A DNA stretch of 50,306 nucleotides, counting the filler, from Bipalium vagum (taxonomy: Eukaryota): assembly GCA_037834085.1 (NCBI GenBank). It is 3 parts of 3 records of this genome, joined end to end, with 100 filler letters (N's around TTAATTAATTAA, not from the genome) between each part and the next. Parts side by side here need not be neighbours in the genome. Positions count along the whole stretch, not along the records: positions 1 to 16,932 come from JBBMKC010085620.1; 2 more parts are not named here. One strand, given 5' to 3'. The position numbers and the translations under genes are program-made. This document shows, one piece after another, positions 1,304 to 48,889 of this stretch (its first letter is position 1; each line of letters opens with the position of its first letter). The notes under the pieces were generated by a model, which was given only the letters and a program-made list of their open reading frames with translations, had not been told where the DNA came from and did no database searches.

Positions 1304-4300
1304 CTATTGATCTTGATTACGTCCCATTGTATTTACATTGTTTCTATTGATCTGGTTCACATGAAGCATTCTAGGAATTTGATTTCCAGCAGCACGACCA
1401 CTGGAGGAGACGCTGGCAATATTTCCTCCTCCTCCTCTGACATTATGACTCCTGATCGGACCGGTAATATTGAAATTGACATTGCGCTCTAAAGTTCGAT
1501 TAATTGCCCCAGATGCACTGCCGCTTTGGTCGTGGGTCGAATTGTTGAAGACGGATATTATTGAATTATTAGCGGCTGCTGAGGAAGAATTCTGAGAATT
1601 TGATTGATTGACAACCTTGTTTTGTTTGGGAAATCTGAACGTTAAACAAAAACACATAACGAGCACACAATAATCGTGGTACCGTGGGAACAATTGGTCT
1701 GACAAACGCCGCCGAGCTTGTTCTGTTCATTATCTGATTCTGACAAATCGACGGGTAATTGTGCATATTTCCAGAATACACCAATCGTTGAAATACCTGA
1801 TCGAACACAATACGCGGTAAAACTATAGAACATCTTTTTTTCGATCAATTTTACCTGACTGGAGGTTCTGCGCGGAATCGAAGCGGAGTTCCTGGGACTT
1901 TGTTGTATTTGAAATTGCACTGGTTGGTGGTTTCTGGATCCCAGGTTGCCTGCAGTTTGGTTCTGGGAAACTGTGGTATTACCAGAACTGGTCAAATTCG
2001 ATGAAATGGCTGAGACAGCCGACTGAACCTGACTGGACGAATTCTGTTGATGAATAACTGTCGTTCCTCCTCCTCCTGTTCCGCCTCCAGACCCTCCGCC
2101 TGCCCCACTCAGCTAAATTAAAGAAAATGAAAATAAACTCGTATCATTATTATTAATACTTTATAATCAATATTTTTCATATACTTATCAATGTTGATCG
2201 ACTTACATTGCGATTGATCGGCAAATTGTATCGAGCTCGAGACACGACTTGACTGTTCCCACCGGCAGAAGTTTGAAGCGAATAGAGATTCTGTCCCGTT
2301 CCACCGAGATTTGTGGAGGTCGTTCTCCTGATATGATTCATGGAGTGAATCGAGGAGTTCGTCGGATTTGTTGTCTCCTGATCAATGATCAATATAAGAA
2401 ATATTTCTCACTATTAAAAAAAACTTACAAAATAACCAATGTTTCGATAAGACGATGACGATTGTATCGATGAAGTGGAAGCAGATGCTAAAATGTGTGG
2501 TGCACGGTTCTGATTGGGGTTTTGGTTGCTATATTCACATTCTCGATCCTTATCCATCTCTTCTCTTCTCTGGATCAACATTGCCGGTGTAAATATTCTG
2601 TCTGGGTGAATGTTGTATTCCTGAATCGAGTGAGTTACCATTTCAAGGTAAAATAACAAAGAAAATCACTTCTAAAGCGCTGATGTGAGTGGCATTTTTC
2701 TTGATTGTCTGACTGTGACTGGGAAGTAGGGAAGGCAGTTTGCTCGTGTTGACAACCTCGTCCAACATTTTGAAGGTCATAGTCGTTTTGATGTCGAAAG
2801 AATTTAGGCAGCTATTGACAATTTGATTGGTTTGGGTGAGGTTTACTTTCATATCGTTCTGAAAAATAGAACAGACGGGTCAGGCCTGTTAATTGGTCGA
2901 TTAAACAAGAAAAACTTGCCAGAAAGCATTGGAACGTTTTAATCTTATTTGTCATTGCTTGAGTGCTTCCAAAAATCGGCATTCCGTAAGTTCCGATAGA
3001 ATTTTTCATTTTTATTTTCAGTTTTCGACCTGTGACTCCGCCTATCACTGAAAATAAGACAAATATTATTCAATACAAAAAATTTTGCCCCATACTCGGC
3101 CTGGATTCACTGTTAGCTCGAACACCCAAAACTCCAGTTGGATTAGACAGACTGGATTGTCTGTTAAATCGTGGCAAATTGCTATCGGCCTTGTTTTGAC
3201 TCAAAAAACCCATTTGCAATTTCGTAAAATGAATATTACACATTTCGCTACTCCGGTGAGTGTTGGTGATGGCATAGAAATTCATGTAATGTTCACAAAT
3301 TTTGAAATTCGGTGACAAATTACTTTTATCGGTCACGGTCGTTGAAAACGGGTAATCTTGGTAATGGCTGATGTTCTGTAGTAAATCACCATTAACAAGA
3401 GCAATTTATTGAAATAAAAATATTTTATCGATTACTTTATTAACTCTGATTTTTCAAAATCCGCTTGAAAAATTTTCATAAAAAATCGATTATTTAAGAT
3501 TAAGCTTTGATAGTTTATACTATTTTTACGTTATAATTATTTTTAATAATAATAATCAATAGAAAATATTTAATGGTTCGCTTTATATTATTGATTTTTC
3601 AAAACATAAAAAGATATTTATCTGTAAATTATATAAACATTGATGTTTTAAAAAAAATTTATCACTTGAAATAAAACGGCTTCTTCATGAATATTCCATT
3701 CGGGTAACTTCTCGTATTCGTTCTCAACATTGGGCTGCAAAACAGATTCGGAGTTGCCACCAAGTTTTGTCTGAAAGAAAATGTTTTTTCATAAACAAAC
3801 AAAAAAATAAAAAATCTTTAAAAAATACATTGAGAAATAATTGTCCTCGGTGATTATTGGCATTGCTGTTGCTGTTATGAATGGATCTCTGAGTCGGTGT
3901 ATAATTCTGTATGCTTGAACTGGAGACAGTAGTCGTTTTAGCACCCAGATTCGATATATTGATTGTGGATATTTGTTGTCTTTTAAATTTTAGTGTTTTC
4001 AACCCGTCTTTCGAATAAAACGGACGTTGGAGATTTATTTTCATCGAACTGTCATTACTACACAAAACGATTGAATTACACTTGCCAACGTCTGTAGTTG
4101 GATGAACTGTGCTGCTTGTATTTGGTGCTGCTGGTTGGTTAACGACCTGGGTGGTGTTATTATCCGCTAAATTGTCGGTAATGGCTGGCGAAGGTTTTTT
4201 CAACTCCACGTCCTTCGTGTCGAGAGGCAGCAAATCAGGATCATTGACACTCCCTGAAACGAAATAAAAAACCAGAATGTTTTGCTCAAACTACTTGCAG

Positions 4301-7300
4301 ACTAAGACTTACTCTTCTCGATTTTATATCTGCTTTTTAGATTATTTTGCGAAGAAGCGAGATCGTTCTCATTTTCCGTATAATAACGCCGGTTGGTGAA
4401 AATTTTCCTCTTTTTTTGATTTAACCCATACTGATTGTAGTTTCTTACTTGATATTCGTTCGGCAACTTTCTTTTCTTCAATCGATCAGCAGAGTCCAAA
4501 TATTCAGGCATATCGACGACCAGATCTTCCTTATTGGACACATTGGATACTTTGTCGTTCCATTTTTTCTGATTAGACTTTATTCGATAGTTTTTCGTTG
4601 GTAACAAATACAAAGACAGTTCCGTATCCCGGATAGGTTTAGTACCGTACATATCCAATATCTCAGTCTGCAAAATTTTTTTTGAATCATCCAATTGAAG
4701 GGGCGTCCATACCTTAATATAAAGTTGAAATTGTTTTCAGTTGAAATCATTGCAGTAAAATATTTAACAAAATTTACTATTTATCAATAATTATTTAGTA
4801 TTAAAGATTGATTTTAAGTCAATGATTAATCAATAATAATATTAGAATTGCAGTGTATTCATTATATATAATATAATTAAAAACAGAAGATTATCCCATA
4901 TTTCGCCTTAATCATATTTATGAAACCCATAAAAAAATATCGCAGAGATAAAATTAATTTTTTCTCAATTAAAGAAATTTTTACTAAAAGTATTTTTACA
5001 CTTCAATATCAATCAACGAAGACATTAATTAACGCTCTTAAAAGAATTAGAAAAATGTAAAAACGCACCCCCGAATCATTCAACTGTAATTGGGTTTGAT
5101 CATAGGATAACAGTGCGTCTTGATGTTCAGTCAGCTCTAGTAAATGACTTAATTTATTTTGACGTTTAATTCTATAGAATTCCATTTTTCTTAACATTTC
5201 CATGAAATCACTATTACTCCTGAAAGGAAGCAGACTATGATTATCGTTATCGATTATTTGATTTGTCCTATCTATCAAGCTGGGTTTCTGACAATTGACT
5301 TTCAATGGACTGAATTCATGTTTGACTCGATTCTTTTGTGTTTGATAATTAGTCAATTGTAACAAGTCGTATGGGTTTTCGAAACTTTTGAACACATCTC
5401 CAATCGAATCCTCAGATAACTTTTCCTTGATCGATAAAACCGATTGAAAACTTTCAATACAAAATCCCGATATCAATTCTTCTTTCAACGGTGAGAACAA
5501 TTTATCAACGAAATATTTCAATAATGACTGTTGAGAAACTACGGCTGACGTTGTGGAAATCAATCCACCCTTGTAACCGAAAGAATTTTCATAGAGAAAC
5601 CCAAGATCGTTAGTCAAAAAATATTGCTCCAGAGTTTCAAAACTACACAGTTTATATATTGACGAAATACCAGATCCTTGGGAAAAAATACAATTCAGAC
5701 CCCATCGATTGATTCTGAAAAAAAATCAATGACCAATCAATTTTAATGGTCTCAGAGACAAAATTTCTCTTACAATTTGTATACCACCTGATCGGAATCT
5801 ATTTGCCAGTGAGAATCAGCGATGATTATCGAACAGGCGTCAACGTTCAACGATGCCAAGTGGTTGTAATTTGTTCTAGCGTGAACCAAAAGAATCGGTT
5901 TTCGATTTCTCAATTGACATCTGTTAAACTTATCGACAACGGATCGTAGGTAATCGTCTGAGTTCCGTAGACAGGTATCGAACCGAAATCGCAGAAAGCT
6001 TCCATAATTGCTATTGAGAAACAAAAGAGCTTCGATTAGATTGAGCAGCTCAGAATTGTGTGACAAAATAATGCACATTTTAACAGTAGAATCATTGACC
6101 AATTTCCGAAGAATGGAATTAAGAATTTTCAGCTTACCTTTTAAATATCAATGATGTAATCAATAAGTAAATTAGATTTCCAACAATACCTGATAATTCT
6201 ATATCCTGTTTTTGAATGACACAATCTCGATTGACGTTTTTAGGTTTGTGGTTCAAAAACGTTTGATAGATTTTACTGATATATTTAACCAGTTTCCGAT
6301 TCTGGTCAATTGAAGATGCAACCAGGGATTTCGATTTGCAGCTAGATGTTAATCTCGGGGGTCTGGAAGCAATCACTTTATTAGTGACAACTGAGGAATA
6401 TCTGGAAAGAAAATCAATAAAAATCCATTTGTATTAAGTTACGGTACGATGTTATTCCATTATATCGTTTTGAGATGGAACACAATGTCTGAAGACAACT
6501 CCGTTGATCTGGCTGAATGCCGAGATCCATTACCAGAAGACCAATTGTACTGACATAGCATGAATCACTACAATCCAACAGTCCGTTGCATTTTACGTTT
6601 TCCTTGGACAGAGTCGTTAATAGGGACTGAATTTGATGAACATTGATTTATTTTTTAAAAATTCAATATCAATAAAATAAAAATTTAATCAACCTTGAAT
6701 TTCGTTTTTGATCGCCTAGCAGCCAGAGTTGAAGTCTGTTGATCTTTGTCACAATGCACAATATCTTTTTGCAGAACCGGTTTCAAGAGGCTAGAGATTT
6801 ATAAATGTACACTTATCAAATACATTAAAATAAATCAATACTTGCTCAAGGTATTCTCGGATTCAACTGAACGGAAATTCTTCAGTTCCAATGTCAACGT
6901 TTCCAAATCAAGTACCGACAAAAATTCTTTTTGATCCTCAGCTTGAAATTTTGACGTACATAACGAACCGAAATCGTTCACTCCGCAAATCTGGCCGGTT
7001 TCATCGTCAGTCTCATTCAACCACATTGATACTTTATTTAATAAAAGATCGATATTTGCGGAAGATATGAGCAAATTCTTCATTTGACCTCTTTCGTATT
7101 TATTGAATGAAAAGTCCGAGATATTGTATGGTAAAATGTAATTGGAAACTTTTTGGTTTTGACAAACACGTAGTGATAACAAAGTCGAGCAAATCTTTTT
7201 CGGTAAATATATCGACAAAGAATCGGAAATATTCATGTAAAATGTTGAAATGGGATTTGGGTCGATTTTACTTTTCTTCATGCACGAATAAAACAATTCC

Positions 7301-9828
7301 ATTTCTGCTTCGTCGGAATATGAATCAAAACAATACGGATGTTGACTCAACAAAATGTCTTGTGAAATGGCCTCGACAATATCGATTAACTTGTTCGATT
7401 CCAATGATCTAAAGATTGTGAATAGATATTAAATTTTGTAAAATCGGTACACCGTGATGTTACTTTTTCAGTTTATCTATAACGTGATGATGCAGAGTCT
7501 GTTGAAAACCAGTCAATGGACACATTACGACTTGTATGGAATTCTCGGGATCGATAATTCTTTGCAAAGGAACACAATGATTTAAAATCACCTATTTTTT
7601 ATACAAAAAAATTAACAAATCGACAAACCCAAATTATTAATGACTATTATTAAATATATGCTTCATTACCGTTGTCAATTTTTCCGACTGGTTAGAAAAA
7701 CCTTTACTGAAATTCTCGTACACACTGTCATTCAACAATTGATCTAGCTCCAATGATGTATAAAACAGGCGGAAAAATGTCTTCATACAATGCTTGGAGC
7801 TGGGAAAGTTATTATCCTCAGAAATCAAACCGATTCTGATCCCAACTTGTTTTGAATCAGATAAAAAAAATAAGTCCGAAACATTTGAGTTTTCACACAA
7901 TGCTTCAATCTGTTGAGGTTAACAAAAAAATAAAATGAATAAAAAAATATTTCCATTAAAAAACGAAACTTGATCATAAATTATATTATTCCATTTGGTC
8001 GAAGAAACACAGAACTGAGAAGCGATGCAACAGTAACTAGCGATACAGACAACCTTATCTCCAGGTTCGGCTCCTCCTATCATTTCAAAAACACTCTTGG
8101 AACTCTTCAAATTAAAATAGGAATCGAGAATAATAACTCTACAGCGAACGTATATCTTTTTCAGTAACAATTCCCATTCCCTCATCCTTTCACCAGTGGT
8201 AATAATCAAATCTGGTATGTCGTTGTGTAGCTTTGTCGACATGTAGACCAGAAACGCTAAAAAATCAATATTTATGTTCAACCTCCAATCAAATTTCATC
8301 GAAACCTGATATTATCAACCGATCATCCCCACACTGCAACGAACTGATAATTGAAAATGACAATTTCTGCATGGCCAAGTCATATAAAACTTGAACATTG
8401 CCATTGATTGTTTCGTTGGACATAAGTTCTTCCAAAATTTCCGGAACGGAAACGGAACCCAGGTCTGTGAATGATATGTTTGACAACAATTCCTGGATTT
8501 TCGTGCTTTGGGAAACGATTAACGGGCACGGTTTCGTGTCAGGTTTCGAGTAAATATCATTTTGATCAAAAGACGTGGCTTCCGACATCAGAGATTCACT
8601 GTCTATGGAATCAGAACTGTTGAAATGCGGCTTCTTGCCGCATATATCTTTATCGAGAAAGTAATTTTCATCGACAATTTTCTCTATTGGAGTCTGAGAA
8701 AGAATATTCAATTCATCAATTTCATTTTCAAAAGAAGTTTTTCTCTGAAAAAAAATTCAAGAAAATCGATAATTATTTGTTAAACATTTTTACCTCATCA
8801 TTTAACTCGATATCATTCTCCAACCAGTTCAATTCGTCTTTAAAATCTGTAATATATGACTCATCGTCACTTATGGACAGACTGTGATCAAAGGTTATGT
8901 CACCATCATCGGTGAACATTATCGATGATCGACTTTGACAAGTATTAAAGGAACAAAGACTTTCGCTACCAGATTTATCATATATAAAGTCAGTTTTATC
9001 ATCACTTTCTGTATTTATGAGATTTTCCGATAACCAAATTTGGAACAGATCGATGTTATTACCACTATAACATAAATCCATGTTATCCTTTAAAGAATCA
9101 ATCTTGTTATCATTAATCTTGAAGAATACCGTTAAAATAACACAATACACAAAACATTTACTTTAGATCTCCACCAATCCTTAATCATATTTGCGATTCT
9201 GGAACATTTCATACGAGCTTCTTCTTGGATTTGTATGAACTCTAAAGTTTTTATCTCCTCTTTAACAAATACATAGGTTTTAGCACTTTCTGCCAACTAT
9301 GTGAAAAATAAAATCGTAACTACTGATATTACAAATAATATTTACAGTTTTTGCAGCCATCATTTTCCAATTCAAACGACTTCTGATATCAGTTGCCATC
9401 CATTCAACTTCATCTAACAAATAATCCCAATGGCCTTTACATCGCAATGGTTCCATTACTTTAGGCAATGCATCTCTGGTCCATATTCCCTTCTTTTTCA
9501 AATTAGAAATTTTATCCAACACAGTGGCCTCTTGAAGAGCATCATTGACATTTTGTTCATCTTGGATTTTCTTGCATATTTTAAAGTCAGACTTATCAAT
9601 TTCAATAGTTTCCTTTTGATTTTTTCTATTCTTATTGATTTTACATTTTACTAACCTCTTAAAAAATTTGCATGTCCTTGGTAAAAATATATTTAACTTT
9701 TCTTTCGAAGTAATTAACTCATTAAATAAATCCGGTCTAAATTTATACTTATATTCACTTTGTAAATAAAACAGATGTAATATTTCTATAGATTTAGCTT
9801 TAAAAATATCACTTTTCGATTCATCCAT
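1304..9828 (-). CDS. EP400: EP400/Domino-type SWR1-family protein (HSA, degenerate SNF2 ATPase, SANT/Myb, low-complexity tail), multi-exon
   Basis: HSA motif LPKVMEPLRCKGHWDYLLDEVEWMATD..WKMMAAK (ORF 9280-9834). SNF2-like segments PDLIITTGERMREWELLLKK and VVCIASY..KWNNIIYDQ. HelicC-like ORF 5770-6102. EP400-like VWTP..DMYGTKPI (~4.7 kb). SANT EWNIHEEAVLFQ..RSSEMCNIHF (3.2-3.7 kb). KNATHISALE..FTPAMLIQRREE tail. In-frame GT-AG introns checked at 9297-9345, 9118-9161, 8257-8305 and 7910-7969. The 3' exon junctions near 1.6-1.9 kb and the exact start codon are uncertain. Confidence 0.87.
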
Positions 9829-10318: not shown

Positions 10319-13300
10319 TTAATTAAAATAATTTTGATGAATTGAGCGAAATAATTGAGAATCATTAGGATTCGAAGGTTGAAAATGAAGTGAAGTCGGT
10401 TGAGGCAAGCCTTTTTGAGGTGCAATCATTTTTGAGTAACCTCGAGAACCTTGATGATTTAAGTTGGCTCCATTTGAGATCTGTGAATAGTTTCCTATGG
10501 GACGAATATTTGCTGGAGATGATTGATGATTCTGAACATTGGGAATGTAATTCATTAAAAACGGCTTTCCAGCAGAAGGTGAATAATTATTCATATTATG
10601 ATTTGGAATATTAATTCTATTCATGGGAAGTGAAATTTGGTTGGGGACAATGCCTGACATTGGTTTATTATTGGTAACGATATGGTTATTCATTTCTTGA
10701 ATATAATTTTGATTGATTTGTTGGGTCATTGGTGGATTACTAACGTAAAAAGGTATCTGTGACTGATTTGATGGAGCAGATGTGATATTATGCATTCTCT
10801 GGTGTAAGATATTGTTTTGCGGTGGCATATTTGCTGAAGAATACATTTGATGTGTCGGAGGCATAATGGGAGGTTTGTGTCGTGATGAAAGATTGCGATA
10901 AGCTGTTGAATATCCAGGATTGTTTTTCAACCATTCATTAAATTTTAAAGGCCCGTCCGGCTGGCTATTGAATGTTGCATACATTTTCTCAACCATCATC
11001 ATGTCATTGTGCTGAGAAGAATAAGCCTGGTTCATCATTGGAGGATAATTACCATTCGAATACATTGCACATTGAAAATTAGCCATTTCATTTACATTGG
11101 GACTAATTGGAAGTGATACATTTGAATTTGATTGATGTATATAGTTTTGTTTCATATTAAATGATTGATTACTCACGGAAGCGTTCAGTTTACCAGACGC
11201 GATATAATCTAGATTTGAATTATTATTAGAACTATTGGATTGAGGACCAGAACTTTGAACATATTGCATTTGCCCCACTGACGCTCCTCCTGCATTCACA
11301 CAATCTTGCGCAGAAGCCGAAGGTGGATTGTTAGAAACGTTGCTATTGCAGCGCATTTGCGCAGTGCGGCGACGAAGAATTTGTTTTTGAGAATATCGAA
11401 GCTTGTTTTCTTGCTTTTTCAATTTCTGTTTTATTTGCTGACAATAGGTAATTATACATTTCAAATCGGTACAAAATTTAGCATGGTAAGCTGATAATTT
11501 GAGAATCCATTTACATTGAGAACACTTAACGCCATCTTTACAGCTCTTATTGTGATATATAAACCAATTTTTAAACACTTTGCAATTCGGCATTTTGCAA
11601 TTGGCATCCCTGCATGAGCTGGCATGCTCAAAATTCTTCACCAATCGATCGATTCTTGTTCTATATGTTTCCTCACAATTGTCATCGGATTTAAAAGTCG
11701 ATGGATCGTGTTCTCCATCAGCAACAGATTTGATTAGCTCCAGAGGATGAATATGCTTATTGGTCAAATAACATTTTTCACACAAATCGAATTCTTCGCA
11801 TTGTGCACAATGGTATCTCGTTTCTATTTGAGCATTACAAGCATTACAGGTGTAACAGAAACTTTGTTTCATTTCATTATGTAATTCATAACACATGACT
11901 AAAGTGGAAAATAAGGATCGCCTCAGATTGGAAAATTCCAAATGCTTAGCACGAGCCATTTGTAGAAAATTTTCTCTGCCATCCATCAATTCCGATTCTA
12001 CTGAAGGATCTGGATCATATATTTCTTTAAGGTTAGCAACATTTTTCTGGGGATGTAGTCGAATTATAAAGAAGTTGTCCTTGTGTTTCTCCATTATTTC
12101 CAGAACCTTTTTAAACAATTCATTAACAATATCGGCAGGATCGTGGCATTTTTTCCTCTTAGAAGTGGCTGCAATACTCGTTGTTTTTTTCTGTTTCCTT
12201 TTCTTCGGTTTCTTATTGCCAATGTTATCATTACTTATCTCATATGATGTATCAAGGTTCTCATTATCCTCATCTTCCTGGTGCACGGTTTCTTTAGCCT
12301 TGCGATTGTTTTCTTCAAACTCTTTCAGAATATCTTCAAATGCATTTGGCCAAAAATCTCCTTCAAAATATGGTATTTCCACAACAGACTTTATCTCGGA
12401 CAAATGAGCATCTTTATAAACGTCTTTATAATCATCAATGACCAATTCTTGCATGCCTTTATCCAACATTTTCGTGTACCATTCCTGCAATCGTTTCGGT
12501 TTCGGAATTCGTTGATCTGGTGGATGAATATGGAATATATAATCATCTCCTTCACTAGGCGGACAGGCCCAAATGTGAGCCATCACATAGCCCAATTTCT
12601 TAACATAATCCAAATATCCTACCAAAATTTCATAATAAACTTTCGTTCGGTGTTTTGAAGGTTCAAAGAATTTGACCGAATCTAAATAGGCCACATAAAC
12701 CCGTCTTCTATTTGGTTCCGGACAATCCGAACCATACTCTTGGACGTGCAGACCGAAAAAACAGACTTCGCGACCTTGATACTCTTGAAATGCAAATATC
12801 GCCTTAGATCTGTACGGAAATGAAGTTTCAGCATCACCGAAAAATGATTTCATTCCTGGTTTAACGTCGGTAACTTTCTTGACGCTGGAAAGGACTCTTA
12901 TGATTACATTATCGGTGGTGATTTCATTTTTCTTTAAATAATCATTGACTCGTTTTTCCAGAAAGTTACTCAAAACCGATGGTAGCAAACGTTTTGCAGT
13001 GTATTTGTTTTCCTTCAATACCAGCTTTGGCACTTTCTGTAAACAGTTTTTGCAATAAAATGCAGTCCATATTTCGTCGATGTGACAGGCACAGACCTTG
13101 TGCCATTTTCTTTTGCATTCTCCACAAAAAACGAATTCTTCGTGTATTTCGACATTATTTTTCTTCTTCACCAGCAATTCTTTCTTGACCAATCTATACG
13201 AAAAAATAAAATATTCAGGTATCAAAATTATAACAAAAAACGAACAATAATTCATTAGACTCGGCAATGAATGTAACTTTCGAAGAACTGTCCGAATAAC

Positions 13301-14957
13301 ACTTTTCACAACACAGATAAGATTCGACTGACATTCCTGGTACTTTATCTCTAAACGCAAAAATAGTACGCATTATTATCACAAAAAATGATTGCTTACT
13401 CTGAGCTCTCATTTTGATAAACATAATAAACTGAATCCTTATTTATAGTACAGACATTAGCCGTGCAACACAACAAAGTTAATGGTTGATAGACCTCCAC
13501 TCGTCCACAGCAAAATCCGAGTGTGACCATTATTTCGTCTATTTGCACCTGTATTTCATTCATGCTCTTAAAAAAATTATAAAAAACAAAAGATAATCAA
13601 TCAATAAATACTTGAACAAAATCCTTTTTAGACTTTCCCTTTTTCTTGGTGTAAATGCAGATATTTTTAATCAAAAGATTCAATTCATCGACAATGGCCC
13701 AAGGATCATCATATTCTCCATCCTCCAGTTTTTGATTAATGGACGACAGCGTTATTGGTTTCGAGTTGATTTTCGATAATTCACCAGTGCTGTAGTTTTT
13801 TATGTCAACTTGATTCAAAAATGATTGAGCAGCCTTGTTATTTTTGACATAATCAAAGAAAACTTTGAACGCAGCAATCAATTCATCTTTGGTCCACGTT
13901 TTCAGAGTCGAATCCGGTTTTTTCGGTTCTTCCGGTTCTGGAACTGCTACTTCTTGTTTTACTTCGATTTTCGGTTCCTTCTTTATTTCCTTTATTTTTG
14001 GATCATTTTTTACGTCGTAATTCAACAGTAACTTTCTCTGTCTCTCGTATTCGTTTTGTAAAATTTTTTCAAAATGATTTAAGTGATCCGTATCGGAACA
14101 CCCTTTATTGGATATTGAAAACAAATCGGAATCGTTGTCATTTGTGGAATTATCAGCCGAAATCGTTGATGGCTTAGAAATTATTTCTGGATAATTTACA
14201 CAGTTTTCCGAGTTTTTCTGACTTATGCAAAGCTTTTTGTGGATTATAAAACAGTTCTCTGCTAATAATCTGTAATATTCATCTATAGAATTCGATTTCA
14301 AGTAGCTGTCATTTTCGATTTTTTTGGCATGATTTATTATATTTATCATTCTTTCATCTTTATACGCTTTACCGCAATCCTTCACTGGCAAAATGGTTTC
14401 AACGCTGTAACAAAAAATTAATAAATTAACAATAAAAACCAAACTTACATTCTATTGATAAGTGTGCTTCGAATATCTTTATCGAGAGTCTTTTTATCTT
14501 TCATTTTATTGTCATTTATTTCAGATTTATAATCAGCAGATTTTTCAATCGACTTCTTGTCTTGATTCATGGTAATTTCATTATTTATCACATGTACATC
14601 TTGATCTGCGGTTTCAAAACTTGTCTTACTTTTACTCGATTGTTTTATGGGCGCACAAATAAGACATGTAAATTTGCCACATCTTTTCCAATGGGACAAT
14701 ATACGTTTTGATGTTGAACAGTGTGAAAAAGGACATTGTTTATCTCTATTGCACATGGACATGTGAGACAAAACATTTCTCATCATGGCACAATGTGGGC
14801 TGGAACAAGGTGTCATTCCATTTATTTCAAAATGTTTCTGACATCGGCAAGCATGAAATATTAAAATTAGTTGTTGTTGTATTTGTTTACGTTTTTGAGC
14901 ATCATCTGATGCAATGGTATTACCATTTACACTTATTGACATTTCACGATATATCAT
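10319..14957 (-). CDS. CREBBP: CBP/p300 histone acetyltransferase (TAZ1-KIX-bromo-RING/PHD-HAT-ZZ-TAZ2-NCBD-like), about 1482 aa
   Basis: Exons 14957-14449, 14404-13612, 13566-13400, 13350-13246 and 13193-10319 sum to 4449 nt in frame, with 44-52 bp GT-AG introns. Motifs: KRKQIQQQLILIFHA (TAZ1), EYYRLLAE (KIX), YLDSV, HIWACPPSEGDDYIFH and PYFEGDFWPN (HAT), YTCNAC..CEEFDLC (ZZ), HASSCRDANC (TAZ2). Confidence 0.96.
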
Positions 14958-16159
14958 CAAAGGTTTAACTTTTTCTTCTAAAATTTTAATTAAATTAATA
15001 CATTATATTAAAAGTAATTGTGAATTTTAAAAAGTAGTTACATTAAAATATAATAAAAATACAAGCGGTAGCCATTACACTTCTTATTTATAAATAATAG
15101 ATATTTAAAACAAATATTTTTGATATAGTTTACAAATTAAGTAACTGTATTAAAATTTTAAATTTTCATAAAAATTTATTGATTTTTTCAAAATATAGTA
15201 ATGATATCATATAATAAAATATGTAGTTTTTGAAGTTTAAACTATAAAAAACCTAATACTTCATGGAAGAACTAAAAATTGAACAAATTACGCAAATATT
15301 CAGTTATAAAAATATAAAAATTTTAAATTTCAATACTTGGTTTAATTTTTTTTTAAAAGAATAGGAATGTTAGTTGAAATATTTTATGTTTTCATAAATT
15401 TCATAATCTTTGATCAGCTTTATATATTTAATTAAGATTTTTCTGAGATTCAAAAATTCATCATATAACAGTAATATATAGCTTTCAAATTTATCTATTA
15501 AATGTTATTGATGTCAAAATGCTTATTGTCAATGCATTACAGTTTCAATAATACGCAAAACAATAGAACATCAATTTGATTACACTGTAAACAGTTCAAT
15601 AACAAAGATTTATTTAAATGATTTTCATTTCAGACATTTTAAATTTTCATTTACTTATTTTCTTATATTTGAATTTAATTTGTAATTATTTATTTGCAGG
15701 GTAATTTTTAAAATGATCTAATAATTCTTATTTTATGTAATCTTTCAAAATTGTTTGGATAGACACTGGCACATCCCTTTAACATTTTAATTATCATTTG
15801 AATTATAAGACCATTTAGGTCTAGAATAATACAATAATAAATTAATTATAAAGACCGTAAAAGAGTCAGAATTAGAATAAGAATGCTGGGTTTGCTAAAT
15901 GCACAAAACCAAATTTTGGTAATAATAATGATTTTGGGAATTGATAATAATAAAAAGATTAATAATATTAAACCAGATTTTGATGATTAATAATAATAAT
16001 AAAGTTTTTAATTAAAATGTTTACTAATATTAAAAAATATTACTAAAAAGTAATATAAAATATCGCTGCCAAGATTTTGATATATGATGGTAATAAGTTA
16101 TTAAGATAGAAATTATGCCCCGTCGTGAGAATACATCTTTTTTTTACTTAAATTTTTTA

Positions 16160-18012: not shown

Positions 18013-18522
18013 GTGATTCTCCAAAAAATCCAAAAAGAAGTAACACTTGATGAATGGAGAAATAATATTTTAAAATACGAACCGGAACTAGTCATGGTTT
18101 ATATTGAGAACCAGTGGTGTCAATCAATACTTGCAATGTATAAAATCCATAAGACTTTCATAGAAATCTAGGACAAAACAATAAAATGTTTAGAAGACAG
18201 TGTAAATCACGAAGATGAACAAAACAAAATTTATTTTCTTTCGAAACCAATTCTAGATCTTTATGAACAACAACGATCTTCACATTCAGCATGTTTCAAT
18301 AGACCATCAACAAAACAAAAGTTATTTTTTAATTACATTAAAACTCTTCCGGATGCAGAAAGAAATCCAACTCATATTAACATTATCAATGCACCGAATG
18401 TTGACTATTCTCAATATTTGACAAATCCTACTTTTCTTTACACCTGGAATCAACCTGCTTTGTCGACCACAGACTTCGTGCACAATATAGAAATTCTCAA
18501 GAGAGGGTTTTATCAGAAATGA
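18013..18522 (+). pseudogene. About 170-codon frame of unknown family with one internal TAG; its TGA overlaps the RING ATG
   Basis: Reads VILQKIQKEVTLDEWRNNILKYEPELVM..IEI*(18169-18171)DKTIKC..LKRGFYQK* with no other stops. Confidence 0.55.
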
Positions 18523-19367
18523 AAACCTCATTGACTTTCATCATAAGAATTGCCATTTCATTTGTGAGCAATAATAAAGATCTGTACTCGCAGCTGCGAC
18601 CTGATATCGAAGACTCCGAAATTTATAAATGTTTAATATGTTCTCAACACGTTCATGAAGAGACCTTTGCCACTTTCCAACGGTGTACTCATAAAGTATG
18701 TTTAACTTGTGTCACACATTTTATGTTAACCCACGGAAGTTGTCCTTTTCACAACTCTGAAATTCATGACCTAATGATGAAGATAGGTCCAGAAGACTGC
18801 AACCGAGAGATTGTTTTAGTTAAAGAATATTTACTCAAAGACACCATAAATATTGGTTTGGAATTGTCTGAAGAGATCGGAAAGCTCAATTTGACGATAA
18901 CGGAAGACTTTATTTCAAATAAAGATCGCATTTCGAATTTGATAGAACAATTTTCTCAAAGTGATTTGGACATAAAAGAAAACAGACTCAGCAAAACCCA
19001 GAAAGAAGTGTTATTAAGGAATTTTGAAAGACCTATTGAGCAAGTTCTAAGCAGGAATATTTTACATTTGTTTAACACCAGGAGAAATAACTTCAAATGT
19101 TTTGTCCATTGCTTGAAGAGGTTTATCTTAAACCATCAATCAAGACTCGCCAATTCTGAAGAAAACGAGAGTATTATTCCTTCTCTTCTTCAATTTTTAT
19201 ACGTGACTCCGGAGGATTATGACAATTTTTACGATTATCTCTCATGTTTTGTCAAAAATGTCTATATCAAGGAGCACATTTCTACAACAATAGTGCAGCC
19301 ATATTTACGGAAGATGAAGGAATGTTATGGGAGGATAGTGACAAGTATAAATTACCAAAACCTATGA
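18519..19367 (+). CDS. Intronless RING-finger protein (C3HC4-like, last ligand His), putative E3 ligase of unassigned family
   Basis: 282-aa ORF with CLIC-x14-CTHKVCLTC-x10-CPFH. It may be the 3' part of a longer broken gene. Confidence 0.7.
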   Translation: MKTSLTFIIRIAISFVSNNKDLYSQLRPDIEDSEIYKCLICSQHVHEETFATFQRCTHKVCLTCVTHFMLTHGSCPFHNSEIHDLMMKIGPEDCNREIVLVKEYLLKDTINIGLELSEEIGKLNLTITEDFISNKDRISNLIEQFSQSDLDIKENRLSKTQKEVLLRNFERPIEQVLSRNILHLFNTRRNNFKCFVHCLKRFILNHQSRLANSEENESIIPSLLQFLYVTPEDYDNFYDYLSCFVKNVYIKEHISTTIVQPYLRKMKECYGRIVTSINYQNL

Positions 19368-24484: not shown

Positions 24485-25972
24485 TCAAAGGCAATTGCAA
24501 TCGAGTTCAACACTATTGTCCTTGACTGATTCATAATTTTCAGTGAGGACAATGCTATTGGTCTCAGCGAAGTGGTCGGCATATTCCTGTAGAACTGTAC
24601 CAAAATAACAGATAATATCGACGGGCATGAAATGAGACTTTATGAAAGCCCTTGCATTATAAGCGATTTGCCGGCATTCGTTATCGTGGTTTTTACACCA
24701 GTTCAATTTCTGAATCAAATCACTGAGATCGGTTTTGATTGGCAAATAATGATCGTACGGTTTCAGTTGAGAATAGATATATTCGTAATATTTCGTTTCC
24801 TCTTTCAATATCACAGATCCTCCAGCTAAGCTCAAAGGAAATCGATAAGCAGCCACAGTTCCGTCCATATTGACAACGTATTTGTATTGAAAGAAATCAT
24901 TGAAAGGAATTGGTCGTTCCAACTGACCCAAGGTTGAATCATTAGAAAAAAAGAACATATTCGTTAATCTGGCATTCAACATATCGGGATATTGCAATGA
25001 CATCCTCACCAAATTCAGTCTGGCATTGCTGCTATCTCGACCTCTCCAGAAGCCTTTTTCAACTTTTTGGTGCCAACTGTAATTAGAATCTTTCAAAGCA
25101 GTGAATATATCCAAATAAACACGACCCATCATTTCAAGAACGGTTTCCATAGTTTCATATGATGGAATGACTATATCATTTGTGTCATCACTTCCACACC
25201 AACTGAAAATGTTGAATTTGTCCCGACTTTCATAGGAAAGAGGCCAGTCTCCCAAATTCATAAGAAAATCCATATCAGGTAAAACGGCTTTATGTGATAA
25301 AGAAAGCAAAGCAGCATCACTAAACATTTTGAAGCCAACATGCTCACCAAAACATTTTCGATAGATTTCGTTAGAGATTATTTTATATCTACAAACGGCA
25401 ACGGATGTAAAAGGCTGATATCTTTTACTGAAATTTTCGAAATTCTTTTCAAAATCTGCTGGTTGGAAATGTTGAAAATCTCTCCAGATCTGATCGTTAT
25501 TTTTTGGACAGTTAAGTTTATGGGTCAAGAATTCCTTGAGAGAAAATTGTGGACAATGACATTTTTCTGAATAAAGTGGTGCTCTGAGTATAATACAAAA
25601 TTTGCCAATGTAAGTCTGAGTTGGCAACCAAAGAAGAGTAAAGACAACATTATCATGAATGATTGCTTTGAGAAGACGAAATCGAATAATAAATGTTCCG
25701 TCATTGAGATAAAGCACTTCGTGATGAAGAAGAATCAGCTGACCAGAAGAATAAAATTGGAAAGATACTTCAATTAATTTATCCGCTCGACTCAATTCAA
25801 TGTTTGTCACATTTTCCAGATCCTTATTCACTAGCTGGACAAAAAAGTATCTCACCGGAAGTGTAAGGGAACTGTCTAAACCTGGTCCATAAATTATAAA
25901 ATTTTCAGGATCCAAAGAATGTGACAATATTTCATTAAAAGTTATAAAAAACAATAAAAGAAAAATTTTCAT
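24485..25972 (-). CDS. POGLUT2: Protein O-glucosyltransferase 2/3 (KDELC): signal peptide, filamin-like domain and CAP10/GT90 domain; intronless
   Basis: YGPGL..LPVRYFFVQ, LPDMDFLMNLGDWP, FSWCGS, GFWRGRDS, YKYVVNMDGTVAAYRFP. The true stop may be at 24462-24464 (see findings). Confidence 0.92.
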   Translation of the reverse strand: MKIFLLLFFITFNEILSHSLDPENFIIYGPGLDSSLTLPVRYFFVQLVNKDLENVTNIELSRADKLIEVSFQFYSSGQLILLHHEVLYLNDGTFIIRFRLLKAIIHDNVVFTLLWLPTQTYIGKFCIILRAPLYSEKCHCPQFSLKEFLTHKLNCPKNNDQIWRDFQHFQPADFEKNFENFSKRYQPFTSVAVCRYKIISNEIYRKCFGEHVGFKMFSDAALLSLSHKAVLPDMDFLMNLGDWPLSYESRDKFNIFSWCGSDDTNDIVIPSYETMETVLEMMGRVYLDIFTALKDSNYSWHQKVEKGFWRGRDSSNARLNLVRMSLQYPDMLNARLTNMFFFSNDSTLGQLERPIPFNDFFQYKYVVNMDGTVAAYRFPLSLAGGSVILKEETKYYEYIYSQLKPYDHYLPIKTDLSDLIQKLNWCKNHDNECRQIAYNARAFIKSHFMPVDIICYFGTVLQEYADHFAETNSIVLTENYESVKDNSVELDCNCL

Positions 25973-26382
25973 AGAAGAAATGTAACTAAAAAATGAAAAA
26001 TATTTAATAAATTTTTGTTTAAATCATCATAATATATTTAGATAAATATATAGACAGATAAAAAATATTTGTATACACTTCGTTTCACTTGAAAAGTGAC
26101 ACTTAAATTTTGTTTATCATATATTATATATATATATAATTTATATTATATTATATTATATATAATTTATATTATATCACTTTAAAAATTCTAGAGATAA
26201 GAATTATATTAGTAAACGTTACAAACTTTATTAAAAATAAAATGAACAACCAATTTTTGTAAGATTAGTTATTCAGTTTGTTTCATTTGAATAGCGATAC
26301 CTGTGATTTTTAAAAAATAGTTTAACATAAGAATAAATGTTCAAAAAAATAACAATTTCAGTCTCAAATTAATCAATTCAAA

Positions 26383-26745: not shown

Positions 26746-26899
26746 TTATACTTACTCTATTCCATAAAAACCCGATTTATTTATTTTAAAAAAGAATTTG
26801 TAAGTCTAGTTTGTTTAATTGATGTAATATTGATTATTATAAATGGTGCTATCTAATGATAATAAAACATCAATTTTAATCCACTATTAGACTATTCTC

Positions 26900-27480
26900 A
26901 TGAAAATTGGTAAAGTAGAGCCACGATACCGAAGAAAGCATATCGAAGGATATGTTGTTAGACAACAACAAGCTATGGAATCTTTTCGGAAGCGGAGATC
27001 TTCTAGCATTATGTGTGTTTCTGAGGAAACTGATATTTCACATACAAGTGTTCAAAGAATTATCAAAGAAGAAGGAATGAGACTTATTTCCAGTAAAATA
27101 AGCCCTCTGTTAAGTGATGACCAGAAATTGAAAAGAGCTAAAATAATTTCGACAGAATCGTCATCATCAATGGAAGAGTCATGTAGACATAGATGAGAAA
27201 TGGTTTGAGTTGTATCTCTTTCAGCAGAAACGATATCATGACAGCAGACCACAAAGAAAACAGCCACTACTTAATAAAGGTAATCCATCAAAGATCATGA
27301 TTCTTACAGCTGTTGTGAAGCCTTATGTTGAAAATGGATTTAATGGATTGATTGGTATCTGGAGGATTCAGAAAAATGTCGAGGCCCAGCATTCTTCGAA
27401 AAATCATCATAAGAGTGACTCACATAAAAATGCACAATAACGGTAGCTAGTTTTTATGACTTGATGACCATTGAAGTTAT
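26900..27480 (+). mobile_element. Mariner-like (DD39D-type) transposase relic
   Basis: DISHTSVQRII HTH, SPLLSDDQKLKR, IDEKWF, KIMILTAVVKP and FNGLIGIW; frameshifted. Confidence 0.72.
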
Positions 27481-32234: not shown

Positions 32235-32640
32235 AATTCGTGCGATCCGGACACCTTATGAGAATTTAGGTGCCATCTTTTATAGCGCCCCAAACCATTA
32301 AACTCTTTCCACCGATTTTTACAGTTTTTGTTGTATATTTGAGATTAAATCTGGATCCTTGTGGTCTGCGAACGTATTCTCTTCTTCTGGAAAATAATTC
32401 TAGCCTACATTCGTCAGTAAAAATGACCACATTCCAAAAAGAAGGAAGTAATTTGCCGTACTCTCTGAACCACTTTAAACGATTCTTGATGTGCCACTCA
32501 TTCAACAGCGGTTTCTTTGCTGCAATCCGTTCAAATAACTGTATTATCATTTGTTTCATCCAAATTTTCCTCGTTGAAATCATCATTGTCAACCATTATA
32601 TACTCTACAAAAGGCATCGGGCTATCAATTTTTAAAGACG
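32235..32640 (-). mobile_element. Tc1 transposase fragment
   Basis: AKKPLL..RLKW, WNVVIFTDEC, TVKIGGKSLMVWGAI. Confidence 0.88.
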
Positions 32641-32699
32641 AGATCAGCGAATCAATTTCATAGTCATAAGGTATTTGAACACATTTGTTGATATTTTCA

Positions 32700-33790
32700 A
32701 TTTTTATAATTTTTGTGATTCCAACAATTCTTAATTGTTTCCGAACTGATTTCGTCCCATGATTTTGTAATAAATCTAACAGCTGTAATTAAATCGATTT
32801 TTCCTCGTCCATTAATATTATCGTTTTCATCAATTTTTCTCACCAGTTCTTTAATAAAAAAGTATCTATATATTACTTTGAAAGCAGCAATAATGCCTGC
32901 ATCCAGAGGCTAGAGCTTCGAGGTTGTATTGGGAATTAAATATTGAATCTTTACATTGCTTAATTTATAGTTTATATGATTATGGCTTGTTACATTGTCA
33001 ATCAAGAGTAGAACTTTTGCGTGTGGAATCTTTCAATTTGATATAATTTGAAAGATTCCATATATCAGTCGCGTCACCCACGCATTGCTATTACACTTAT
33101 AAATTATTCCAATATTTATCAGATTTATATTTTTAAAGCATCTGGGACTAGAATATGTACCAATAATAAGTGGTTCCATCTTTTCAGTTCCTGTAGCATT
33201 ACAGCACAGACCAATTGTAATTCTAGTCTTATCTTTTTTCCTTCCTTCAACTACTTTTGATGCCAAAGTTTTATCTGGTTCCATTTTATAAAATAAACCA
33301 GTTTCGTCAAAATTGAAAACGTCATTTGGATTATATTTGTTAATGACGTCAATTAATTGAGCGTTAATAATATTTTGATCGACTGAAACTGATTCACCGT
33401 GTATTTGACGTTTCTTTATATTGTGCCTCTTTTTAAAGGAGTATAGTCATCCTTCTGAAAATTTAAAGTCCTCATCAATATTAACTTTTGTTAAAATTTT
33501 CTTTGCCTCTTCTCTAATCATTGCATCAGATATGATTTTTATCATTTCATATTTTAACACCCATTTCAACAGTGCTTTTTCGAGTTCTGGGTGCTTCACC
33601 TTTCTGTCTCTCATTCCACTGTTCATCTTCATATCATAATCTAATCCAGATTTTAAGATCTTAGAAATGGTGGAGCGGTCTACAGTTTTATGGAATTTTT
33701 TCTGTACCCAGAAGACCAATTGATTAATTTTTAAATTTTTATTATTTTTAAAATATGATATTAATTTACCCTTTTCAATAAACGTCAGTG
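32700..33790 (-). mobile_element. pogo/Tigger (CENP-B-like) transposase pseudogene, truncated by gap
   Basis: KHPELEKALLKWV, FKFSEG, HGES, FNFDETGLFY, CCNATGTEK, LLLIDNVTSH, PNTTSKL*PLDAGII, WNEISSETIKNCW. Confidence 0.92.
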
Positions 33791-33890
33791 NNNNNNNNNN
33801 NNNNNNNNNNNNNNNNNNNNNNNNNNNNNNNNNNTTAATTAATTAANNNNNNNNNNNNNNNNNNNNNNNNNNNNNNNNNNNNNNNNNNNN
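33791..33890. other. Scaffolding gap: 44 N + TTAATTAATTAA + 44 N
   Basis: Same artificial linker as at 16933. Confidence 0.97.
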
Positions 33891-38330: not shown

Positions 38331-39455
38331 ATATGTCGAAATCCCCACGAAAAAATCAAAAATAAAGAATTATATGAATCAATCAATAATCAAATAATAT
38401 CAATTAAATCAAAATTTTAATCAAATGTCTAATGAAAATGTCAATATTCTTTATCAATATTCTTTTAATTAACTTTGTACTTTTCAATTAATTTTTTTTG
38501 TTGGGTTTGCCAAGAGAACATTCCTATGAACCCTGATAAAAATTATATGTTAAAGACCGCAAAAGTGTCTAGAATATTTATAATTATTGTAAATTAATTA
38601 TTAAGACCACAAAAGTGTCAGAAGTAAAATAATAATAATAATTATCCGAAAAATAATAATTTTAGTTTAATTAACAAGTACAAAGTTAATTAAAAATAAT
38701 ATAAAAAAATTTTATTTTTTCAAAAAAATGAATTTTATCTTGACAATGGCGACGCTGAATTCTCAAGATTAGTTCCGGGTCTACAAGGAGGGACCGAGTA
38801 ATCATTTTGAATTTGGGAATTTGTAATCGACATTCCCCAGTGATAAAAAAAGAGAATTTACATTCCCAGCAATAAAGTTTGTCTATGATTGACTGATCGT
38901 CTAACCAAAGTGATATTTAAGAAGTTGGAATCCGCAATGGATTGCCACAAAATTCTTCGAAGGAAACTACGTCAGAAGAAATTATTGAACATTATATTTA
39001 TATAATAACATTATATATATAATAATTAGTAGCTTTATTTATTATTTTTTTTCATTGTCATTATTTTATGTCCGAATTAGGGGCTTATTAACAATGCATT
39101 ATTGATAATATGAATAATTGAAAATTGATTGCTACGTCTTAGTCGTATGCGTTCGATCTGAATCCATAATTAAGCCTCATGGCGCTTTATATATGTAAGG
39201 ATTTAATAAAGTTTCCTTTGGCATAATATTTTAAGTATTTCAAACTTTTTAATTTCATTGTTTTGATATTATTTTAAGCTATTTGATTTAAATATAAATA
39301 AAAAATTATTTTACCTTTAAAAATAATTTCATTATCATAATCTAATTTAATTATTTAAAATGAATTTTCATGTTTTACAATATTTCTTTTGTTATAATAA
39401 TAAAATTTCCTGCAACATTTTAAATTATGTAACTTAATTCAATATTCATTTTATC

Positions 39456-41330
39456 ATGGAAAAAGATATTTTACATAATGATTCAGTGTGCCGCACATTT
39501 TCTCAAAACATTAAAAGGCTCATTCATTGGGCACCTTTGATTGCTCTTTTCATAATTTTTTTCATAGCAATAGTAACAACGAACTGTATTATTTATGTCT
39601 ATCATCCTTTCTCGAATTGGATATGCTTCATACATTTTTCCATCTATGTTTTCGAGTTCTATCTTGTTATGTCCAATTATCTGACTGCAAGTTTTGTCGG
39701 TCCAGGATTTGTACCGTTGGAATGGAAACCGGTATGTTGTTTGTAAGATTATTTAAATTATTGGAAAACTTTACAATAGGATATTCAAAGCCATTATGAG
39801 TATCTTCAATTTTGCGATTTATGTGAAGGCTACAAACCACCGAGATCTCATCATTGCCGAAAATGTGATAGGTGTGTCATGAAAATGGATCATCATTGTC
39901 CGTGGATCAACACGTGTTGCGGACATTTGAATCATGGATATTTTGTGTATTTCCTGTTCTTTGCTCCTGTCGGCTGCGTGCATTCAACTTATTTGTTGGC
40001 TATCACATTGTATTACGCGATCTATGTGGTAATTATAGATAATTTTATCAATTTCTGTTTATTAGTTTCAAACTAATTTCAATAATCTTAAACGCTTTTT
40101 TATTCTCTTCACTTTTATCTAATGCACAATACTTTTACTATCACCTTTACGCAGGATTACTTTTTCGCTTACGACGACAGTGTGGTTGTCGTTTTGTCAC
40201 TGACGGAATTTCTGTGTACATTTTTCGCAACCGGCTTAGCTATTGGTGTCGTAATTGCCGTCGGATCACTGTGGGTGATTCAGATGAAAGGTATCATGAA
40301 AAACGAGACAGGTGTGGAAACGTGGATTAAAGAGAAGGTCTTGCAATAGAGTTTTTTGTGTGATGTTAAACTCGTTGTTCAGTCGGAACTTAGGATCCAA
40401 GAAAGTGGCAACGAGGAGAAATTCGTATACCCTTACGATTTGGGTCGTTGGAAAAATCTAAAAGAAATAATGTCTTGGAGTGGAAAAAGCAACGGAGATG
40501 GAATCACGTGGCCTGTGCGAGAAGGTTGCGGCCAATTTGACTTAACTGTAAGTGAATTATCCTGCCAGATGATTCGATCTTGATGATCCTTTGGGAAAAG
40601 TTTATCGATTAGTTGAATATGTTTTGTTAAATCGATATTAACATTAAAATTCGTCGTAATGATTGTTTTGTAAAAATAATTATGATTATAATCACTTCAA
40701 AAATTATTGATTAATTTAAAAATTAATTGTCGATTGTGTTTCAACATTAAATCATGTCTTATTTTTTAAAGATAGAACAAATCCGTCAAAAGAAGGACAA
40801 AGATTTCCATTCTCAAAATTACGAGATCAAAAAGTTCTACAGTGGTTCTCTTGTTCCGTTATTGAGTTTCGGATGCCGAGTGTCTATGGGGTCTCCTTGC
40901 ACGGATGAAAATCGAATCCCCGTGTCTCCGGGCCAAATTGTCAAAGTTACTCGTTGGAGAAAGTTGGTTTCAATGTTTTTCATTATTGATTTTTTCGTTG
41001 TTTGAATTAATTGATAATTCACTTTTGAAAATAATCGAAATTTAGGCACTGGTTGTATGGGCAGATAATTCACCCACCCGACATTAATTCATTCATTTCC
41101 GAGAAACACCGAGTGAAACACGGTACTTTCACTTTTCTATCTATTTTTATTGATTTTTTTAATTTTTAGGTAAACCAAGAGGGTGGTTTCCGGCCATTTG
41201 TGCTCGGCAATCGTTTTCCGATGACAGTGCAAACGTTAATGTGACTCGAAACGGCAAGGCAACGACAGCCACAATGCCCAAGCCCACTGCTCCCTCCTCC
41301 AATACGTCTGGACATGTGAAATGTGACTGA
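39456..41330 (+). CDS. ZDHHC6: Palmitoyltransferase ZDHHC6 (DHHC-CRD and SH3), 433 aa, 7 exons
   Basis: Exons 39456-39731, 39780-40028, 40155-40337, 40383-40547, 40772-40962, 41046-41122 and 41170-41330 total 1302 nt in frame. Motifs HWAP, GPGFVPLEWKP, KMDHHCPWIN, YPYDLG, PCTDENRI, HWLYG, RGWFP. Confidence 0.95.
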
Positions 41331-47820: not shown

Positions 47821-48138
47821 TCATTTCAATTTAATTATCAACCAACAAAGAAAAAAGATCAGAAATCCAAATAAAACCAGATAAATAATCAATTTTGAAG
47901 GATTGTGTTTTGCTAGATGACCTAACTTAGACATTGATATTTTCAGAGCTCCGTCCACTTTATCGATATCATTTATAAATGCCGATTGAAGGAAATTATT
48001 CTGACTTCGTACCTCTTCACCAATATGAATAGATAATGATTTTAAAATACCAGTCTGTTCATGCAACTGATTAATTAATATTTCATTTTGCTCATCCACT
48101 ATATTATTAACACCAGTGCCAAAGTTATTCCTACGCAT
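47821..48138 (-). CDS. BET1: BET1 Qc-SNARE, intronless
   Basis: LKSLSIHIGEEVRSQN SNARE motif and a C-terminal TM segment ending WLIIKLK. Confidence 0.9.
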   Translation of the reverse strand: MRRNNFGTGVNNIVDEQNEILINQLHEQTGILKSLSIHIGEEVRSQNNFLQSAFINDIDKVDGALKISMSKLGHLAKHNPSKLIIYLVLFGFLIFFLCWLIIKLK

Positions 48139-48889
48139 AGATATTTTTCTTTAAAATATTGGAATTTCTTAAAAAAACATAAATGAAAGAAATTATTTCT
48201 GTAAAATTAAATACACGTATATCAGTGCAATAATAAAACAAAATCATTTTACTTAAATTTCATATTACAAAATTAATATTTTTTACTGTAAAAATAATTA
48301 AGAAATGTTATAAAATATTCTGTTTTAAATATAAGTGATCATTCAATAAACTATAAATGAAAGCTAGTAATTTTCTGAAATATTTTTTTGATAAATGAAA
48401 ATTAGTTATAATTAAAAGTTGATTAATAAATTCAATAAAAAATAATCACAATGAATGATTTTAAATATAAATTTTTTTATAAATCAAATATAGATATAAG
48501 AAAAAAATTAATATATAAATGGTATTCAACCACATATTTATTAGATAATTTGATAATTACATTTGCCATCCATTTATTTAATCACATTTAACTTTCTAGA
48601 GGTAAGATTCCTAGTCAGTGACTCTAAATTGAAGAAGGTGAAAGTCGTGGACCTACAGAATTGGTAGTCGTTCTATTTATATGTAGAGACATGACCCTGA
48701 AGACCTATATATTAATAGTGTTGGGCAAGCGACTTCATTGTGACGATGGTAGCACTGGTACAATATATCAATATTAATTAATTAATTATAAAGATCACAG
48801 ATGGGTCTAAAAAAGAAAAATAATTATTATTATAAAAATATAATGATTATTATAATTAACGTAACGGGACGAAATAATACAGAAATTTT

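Follow-up and report, generated by a model that had tools for sequence, protein, structure and literature searches.

Yeast, fly and human all divide the labour between an acetyltransferase scaffold and a histone exchange motor, and in Drosophila the functional split between DOM-A and DOM-B has already been published (PMC7239659); in that report, DOM-A K945G still supports H4K12 acetylation, its ATPase not being needed. In the human TIP60 complex, the available portions of three structural studies place actin and BAF53 on the HSA domain of EP400, seat the C-lobe of the motor and its insertion on the RUVBL1/2 ring and hold TRRAP after the motor (PMC11578891; PMC11995519; bioRxiv 2024.07.30.605802). 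When EP400 carries the ATPase-dead K1085L substitution, the full complex is described as assembling with histone acetyltransferase (HAT) activity retained, while acetylated H2A.Z falls and roughly 26% of the H2A.Z peaks are altered (bioRxiv 2025.09.22.677705). The function of the EP400 motor within TIP60 is disputed, as far as these sources go: one structure has the motor blocked from DNA (bioRxiv 2024.07.30.605802), and H2A.Z exchange is reported on the other side (PMC11578891; bioRxiv 2025.09.22.677705). Here we analyse a 50,306-nt stretch of joined genomic parts of the flatworm Bipalium vagum (assembly GCA_037834085.1; hereafter the window), which holds a gene that extends this published principle: an EP400/Domino-type protein predicted from its sequence to be an ATPase-dead pseudo-ATPase.

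Hydrolysis of ATP by these motors requires the Walker A lysine and the Walker B glutamate, a dependence on which the published lysine mutants rest (motif names follow general SF2 helicase usage). The initial annotation had reported all four catalytic motifs of the window protein as degenerate, and our reading of the spliced minus strand agrees with it throughout: Walker A is QCGDD (8336-8322), with DDR in the register of GKT; Walker B is IIYDQIE, with glutamine at the glutamate position; motif III is LISED (amino acids 584-588); and motif VI, which spans intron 12, is VYKLINRWG, its first arginine replaced by leucine. The Walker A register is gapless against an intact SWR1 and was compared by eye with human EP400; it could move by 1-2 residues, and GK appears in none of the shifts. 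Since the exon 4 piece that carries this position has by itself no detectable similarity to the SNF2 profile (E 0.9), its assignment rests on adjacency to exon 5 (E 6e-4); exon 6, with motif III, likewise gave no local profile match. Of the residues that mark an active SNF2 ATPase, then, we find neither a Walker A GKT nor a Walker B DExx, no TGTP in motif III and one of the two motif VI arginines. Walker A and motif III are thus lost, as are the glutamate of Walker B and one arginine finger, and the protein is predicted to be ATPase-dead.

An alternative exon that supplies GKT or DExx had been named among the observations that would refute this idea, and it was looked for by enumerating all open readings with zero, one or two GT/GC-AG introns. 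GK was restored at the Walker A position in none of 794 open routes and a hydrophobic-DE sequence at Walker B in none of 171, whereas for motif VI the RxxRxG pattern arose in one of 53 (a two-intron route) and HRIGQ in none. These counts bear directly on the view that ATP binding or hydrolysis persists, whether by way of an unseen exon, by trans-splicing or editing, or with non-canonical residues. The Walker B aspartate and the second motif VI arginine do remain, and the splice forms are known from genomic sequence alone; however, besides the failure of every route to rebuild Walker A or B, the sole GK[ST] on the minus strand from 9345 to 7600 lies out of frame inside exon 3, and two aspartates occupy the phosphate-binding Gly-Lys site. 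Residual ATP binding or hydrolysis is in our judgement very improbable.

The mapped exons had also been described as open and in frame, and this description can be extended. In a three-frame reading of the minus strand, the model runs from the ATG at 9828 to 3096 through 17 exons and 1770 codons without a stop, and its 16 introns are all GT-AG (14 of 44-78 nt, the other two of 290 and 356 nt); with six more introns, including a GC-AG one, it grows to 23 exons and 2121 amino acids, still stop-free, the joins below ~1850 being less certain. In a three-periodic Markov coding model trained on five neighbouring open reading frames (ORFs), the model frame is the best of the three sense frames in all 17 exons of the shorter version and scores above the antisense strand in 16 of them, while 14 of the 16 introns are negative in all frames. 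Upstream of 9828, no conserved coding exon was found.

A metagenome contig (L001), one of 128 candidate stretches, carries an orthologue that shares the start codon as well as the positions of introns 1 and 2. This contig ends before the motor, so that the ratio of nonsynonymous to synonymous divergence (dN/dS) covers exons 1-2 only: over 205 codons the amino acid identity is 62%, dN is 0.23, dS is 1.45 (near saturation) and dN/dS is about 0.16. Exons 1-2 are under purifying selection. For the motor, selection is argued indirectly, from the absence of stops in 755 codons even though 75-80% of the residues differ from intact SWR1; in 2000 runs of simulated neutral substitution over 2265 nt, the first stop appeared after a median of 9 changes, by 34 changes in 95% of runs and after 108 at most. 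The earlier proposal of a selected gene rather than a pseudogene is therefore upheld by the open exons, the coding-frame signal and the orthologue ratio in exons 1-2. The same three observations, together with the lack of frameshifts, argue against a pseudogene or an assembly artefact; in favour of an artefact it may be said that the sole contig set with this stretch (run X1; one contig, 0 differences) may be the source of the window, and so provides no independent check of base accuracy. We give this explanation minimal weight. In addition, the two species share an identical 15-nt stretch about 45 nt 5' of the ATG (window 9880-9834, minus strand; L001 258-300), and an AG comes after it, immediately ahead of the start codon. 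This may be a conserved intron of the 5' untranslated region, a splice-leader acceptor or a promoter element.

Regarding family placement, the window protein has an N-terminal HSA domain, two RecA-like lobes in SNF2 order and a long inter-lobe insertion, the combination that defines SWR1, SRCAP, Domino and EP400, and its sequence supports membership in the SWR1/Domino/EP400 family. The HSA domain is well kept, as previously claimed: in a Pfam scan of 24 ORF pieces, exon 1 scored 31.1 bits against PF07529 (cut-off 23), and none of the 24 pieces matched the SNF2, Helicase_C or Myb models. Its best matches in the PDB are EP400 (E 5e-14 to 1e-13), SRCAP (1e-12) and then Eaf1 (0.03-0.05), with 30 of 61 residues identical to EP400 when counted by hand on the PDB match and 33% (15/46) identical to an intact SWR1 in pairwise alignment. 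HSA searches of protein collections (proteins of up to 2000 amino acids) returned nothing, or just the L001 exon and one fungal Eaf1. We call the gene EP400-like, not SRCAP-like, because of its long post-motor extension, the preference of its HSA domain for EP400 and a likeness of the post-motor region and tail to EP400 that was judged by eye, not computed.

The motor itself was compared with nine intact references, found by scanning two contig collections with an SWR1 motif pattern and comprising three eukaryotic loci and 6 of 13 bacterial-type SNF2 loci. Among them, L002 is a single-ORF eukaryotic (algal) SWR1 that matches SRCAP with 814 bits, Swr1 with 685 and EP400 with 472. The nine-reference profile aligns with amino acids 461-1148 of the model, both lobes included, with a gap of ~320 amino acids between them; amino acids 401-1200 score 24.9 bits against this profile, whereas neither the reversed sequence nor any of 300 shuffles exceeds 4.0. 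In pairwise alignment with L002, lobe 1 is 20% identical (58/283; z 9.1) and lobe 2 is 25% identical (37/148; z 5.3). Exon 12 is read as Helicase_C in the ESM Atlas (score 0.91, 25 of 30 hits, with only 138 of 256 features shared) and matches Pfam HDA2-3 under the cut-off (E 8e-4), and lobe 2 of intact SWR1 also matches HDA2-3 weakly. Apart from the HSA domain, single exons gave no relevant match in the PDB, NCBIfam or Pfam above cut-off, and no relatives were found in viral contigs. As to the reference loci, L002 comes from an IMG/VR viral contig in which the intact eukaryotic SWR1 lies beside an apparent T4-type capsid gene (2222-5569 and 7362-9328), and this contig is probably a chimeric assembly; other SWR1-type genes of eukaryotic kind, with 55-79% identity to L002, lie within prokaryotic metagenome-assembled genome records (L003, L017 and L018), likely as contamination of those bins.

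The claim that the motor was inactivated while its fold was kept proved too tidy. Only 33 of the 137 invariant columns of the nine references are retained, and hydrophobic invariants (14/58) have been lost as often as the others (19/79), which makes the motor look broadly relaxed and not selectively disarmed; the drift covers the whole motor, beyond the catalytic residues. Single-sequence folds are poor, with a predicted local distance difference test score (pLDDT) of 44 for exon 12 and 35 for exon 8, and a fold search with the exon 12 model gave generic alpha/beta matches only (best Z 7.2). Nor could we sustain the statement that the SANT domain and an EP400-specific tail are well kept: the region after the motor has no Myb/SANT match in Pfam, four tail pieces searched as single exons have no EP400 match in the PDB, and the fungal Eaf1 SANT aligns at the expected place (amino acids 1658-1698) with a score equalled by 25 of 300 shuffles.

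Several of these results weigh against a conserved EP400-type scaffold with a dead motor, namely the equal loss of catalytic and core residues and the three negative or weak results for SANT and tail. To them should be added that the HSA domain prefers EP400 over SRCAP by merely 3-4 bits, that dN/dS comes from exons 1-2 alone, that counting open frames involves some circularity, the exons having been picked for being open, and that in human cells, as the accessible parts of two reports have it, the EP400 motor matters for loading of acetylated H2A.Z (bioRxiv 2025.09.22.677705; PMC11578891). In this regard, the gene might instead be a fast-evolving Domino/SRCAP duplicate whose HSA-actin/ARP module serves another or narrower role, with a different copy scaffolding TIP60 and the motor persisting as a relaxed linker on its way to being lost. 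Strong conservation confined to the HSA domain, the lack of significance of SANT and tail and the uniform drift over the motor are what such a duplicate would look like. On the other hand, both lobes and the insertion retain normal spacing with few gaps, the tail of ~900 amino acids is open and coding-like, and the contigs of run X1 showed no further copy of 85% identity or higher, so we regard this account as unlikely, though deserving more attention than the artefact and residual-activity accounts.

The reading that we favour, and to which we attach fair though clearly incomplete confidence, is that of an intact-frame EP400/Domino gene with an ATPase-dead motor, the product of which likely serves TIP60/NuA4, the histone acetyltransferase complex, as a passive scaffold. 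By analogy with the human structures, its HSA domain would bind actin and ARP4/BAF53, lobe 2 and the insertion would dock the RUVBL1/2 ring, and the post-motor region would bind TRRAP. These contacts would explain why, unlike in Eaf1, a dead motor has persisted at full length instead of being deleted. As to its origin, the flatworm lineage may have duplicated Domino, one copy taking the DOM-A/EP400 role with a motor exon no longer common with the exchange enzyme; selection on catalysis would then have been lost, and the motor domain would have been kept as a structural part, decaying into a pseudo-ATPase that serves as RUVBL-ring adaptor. Given that ATPase-dead EP400 keeps HAT activity and that DOM-A does without ATPase, this history is the simplest, and we hold it to be about evenly poised between right and wrong.

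Such a history presupposes that H2A.Z exchange is performed by another gene of the SRCAP/SWR1 type, intact and located elsewhere in the genome. Alternatively, the window gene could be the sole SWR1-family gene of the animal, ATP-driven H2A.Z exchange being lost or handed to another enzyme. No intact SRCAP lies within the window, the only stretch searched, and a 50-kb window is uninformative on the rest of the genome; moreover, yeast, fly and human keep SWR1-type exchange separately, as the available text of PMC7239659 indicates. We consider a sole gene very unlikely, and the same holds for the extreme form of our proposal, in which no second copy exists and the animal gave up SWR1-type H2A.Z exchange.

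If the scaffold reading is true, a selected EP400-like gene with a dead motor would show that the activity is dispensable even where the domain continues to be required, and would mark the surfaces that the scaffold needs. The listings of full-text literature searches, in a body mostly without subscription papers and excluding supplements, contained no naturally occurring EP400-like protein of an animal that lacks Walker A and B. Planarians need TIP60, the complex of which has yet to be described there, as stated in the accessible part of PMC13264050; this part and that of bioRxiv 2024.04.10.588909 do not describe the scaffold, and the portion available of PMC9236257 adds nothing. The dead-motor state may be flatworm-wide and sit unremarked in databases, and if planarians have it, RNA interference offers a direct test.

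Table 1. Features of the EP400/Domino-like gene and of its neighbour, in window positions.
Feature	Positions	Strand	Remarks
EP400/Domino-like gene	1304..9828	minus	At least 23 exons, >2100 amino acids; exons below ~1850 and stop codon uncertain; ATG common with orthologue L001
Pre-HSA and HSA helix	9162..9546	minus	Exons 1-2, intron 9345-9297; Pfam and PDB (EP400, SRCAP, Eaf1) matches
Acidic linker, HSA to motor	8470..9117	minus	Exon 3 plus the beginning of exon 4; open, coding-like
Walker A position	8319..8327	minus	D454-D455-R456 for G-K-T
Exon 5, lobe 1 core (motif Ia region to Walker B)	7970..8256	minus	tblastn E 2e-4; hhalign E 6e-4
Walker B position	7970..7975	minus	D555-Q556 (DQIE) for D-E
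Motif III position	7814..7831	minus	GLISED for LxTGTP
Helical segment following lobe 1 (exons 7-8)	7336..7591	minus	RR pair to NH; NHP to QHP
Inter-lobe insertion of ~320 amino acids (712-1030)	6194..7335	minus	SWR1/INO80-group type; placed by profile; predicted RUVBL1/2 docking, after the accessible part of PMC11578891
Exon 12, with lobe 2 of the motor and degenerate motifs IV-V	5774..6137	minus	Helicase_C (ESM Atlas); HDA2-3 below cut-off; hhalign E 0.009
Motif VI	5699..5784	minus	Across intron 12 (5773-5715); second Arg and Gly kept
Probable SANT region	3096..3770	minus	Exons 16-17, intron 3665-3376; position fits, no Pfam match
GC-AG intron	2859..2919	minus	Keeps tail in frame; consensus-like donor; sole non-GT intron of the model
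C-terminal tail	1304..2858	minus	Distal part S/N/Q/G-rich; coding-like; exon joins less certain
CBP/p300 gene	10319..15002	minus	TAZ, KIX, bromodomain, PHD, KAT11, ZZ, TAZ; 490 nt upstream of the EP400-like gene

The neighbouring CBP/p300 gene, which served to place the host, has its PHD, KAT11, ZZ and TAZ2 domains in one 3-kb open frame, as compared with more than 20 introns in the EP400-like gene. Among the matches listed, it is closest to schistosome CBP (52-53% identity). In a tree built from the window copy and 44 of 120 listed hits picked for taxon spread, one unnamed row having been joined to the flatworm group after a quick tree was inspected, it falls with the flatworms, which a branch with support 100/99 separates from the other sequences; its own terminal branch is long, and it groups with neodermatan CBP2-type copies. 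Elsewhere in the window, a plus-strand ORF of 320 amino acids (18405-19367) has a weak RING finger match (Pfam E ~0.01), a single-frame minus-strand ORF of 512 amino acids (24485-26023) resembles a KDELC/POGLUT-type glycosyltransferase with a signal peptide, and exons of a DHHC palmitoyltransferase with a visible DHHC motif lie at 39438-40330 (plus strand). By eye, fragments at 26891-27440, 32266-33842 and 48908-49426 resemble Tc1/mariner and pogo-type transposases and Ty3/gypsy reverse transcriptase, and a short minus-strand ORF (47821-48150) looks like a SNARE of the BET1 type, membrane-anchored at its C-terminus.

Among known proteins, HDA2 and HDA3, the SNF2-lobe-like subunits of the yeast HDA1 complex, are not known to carry ATPase motifs and have a likeness to the window protein in the weak match of exon 12; they belong to another complex and have another domain layout, so that the likeness is an analogy only. 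SRCAP and Swr1 are collinear with the window protein in HSA domain, both lobes and insertion, but their catalytic motifs are intact, whereas the window protein keeps about a quarter of the positions invariant in the nine intact SNF2 proteins. Human EP400 shares with it the HSA domain, of which it is the best PDB match, a split SNF2 motor with a long insertion and a long C-terminal extension; it is also altered at motifs Ia and III, and its match to the intact SWR1 L002 is well below that of SRCAP. Unlike the window protein, however, EP400 retains Walker A (GLGKT) and Walker B (DExQ), and exchange activity is reported for it in the accessible parts of PMC11578891 and bioRxiv 2025.09.22.677705; the window protein also differs in starting just ~100 amino acids before the HSA domain. 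Drosophila DOM-A, as described in the available part of PMC7239659, resembles the role proposed here, being an ATP-independent scaffold of a NuA4-like acetyltransferase, but its motor is intact and common with DOM-B, a single gene giving rise to the two by splicing, while the window protein has a degenerate motor of its own. Yeast and fungal Eaf1 likewise parallels that role as an HSA-bearing, ATPase-less NuA4 scaffold, with HSA similarity both in the PDB and to a fungal protein (P0122; 29 bits), yet Eaf1 has no motor domain at all, whereas a motor remnant of ~750 amino acids is retained here. Should the adaptor reading hold, for which we see about as much reason as against, the protein would represent an animal TIP60/NuA4 scaffold standing between EP400, with its working motor, and Eaf1, with none, and reached by a route different from both fly splicing and fungal absence.

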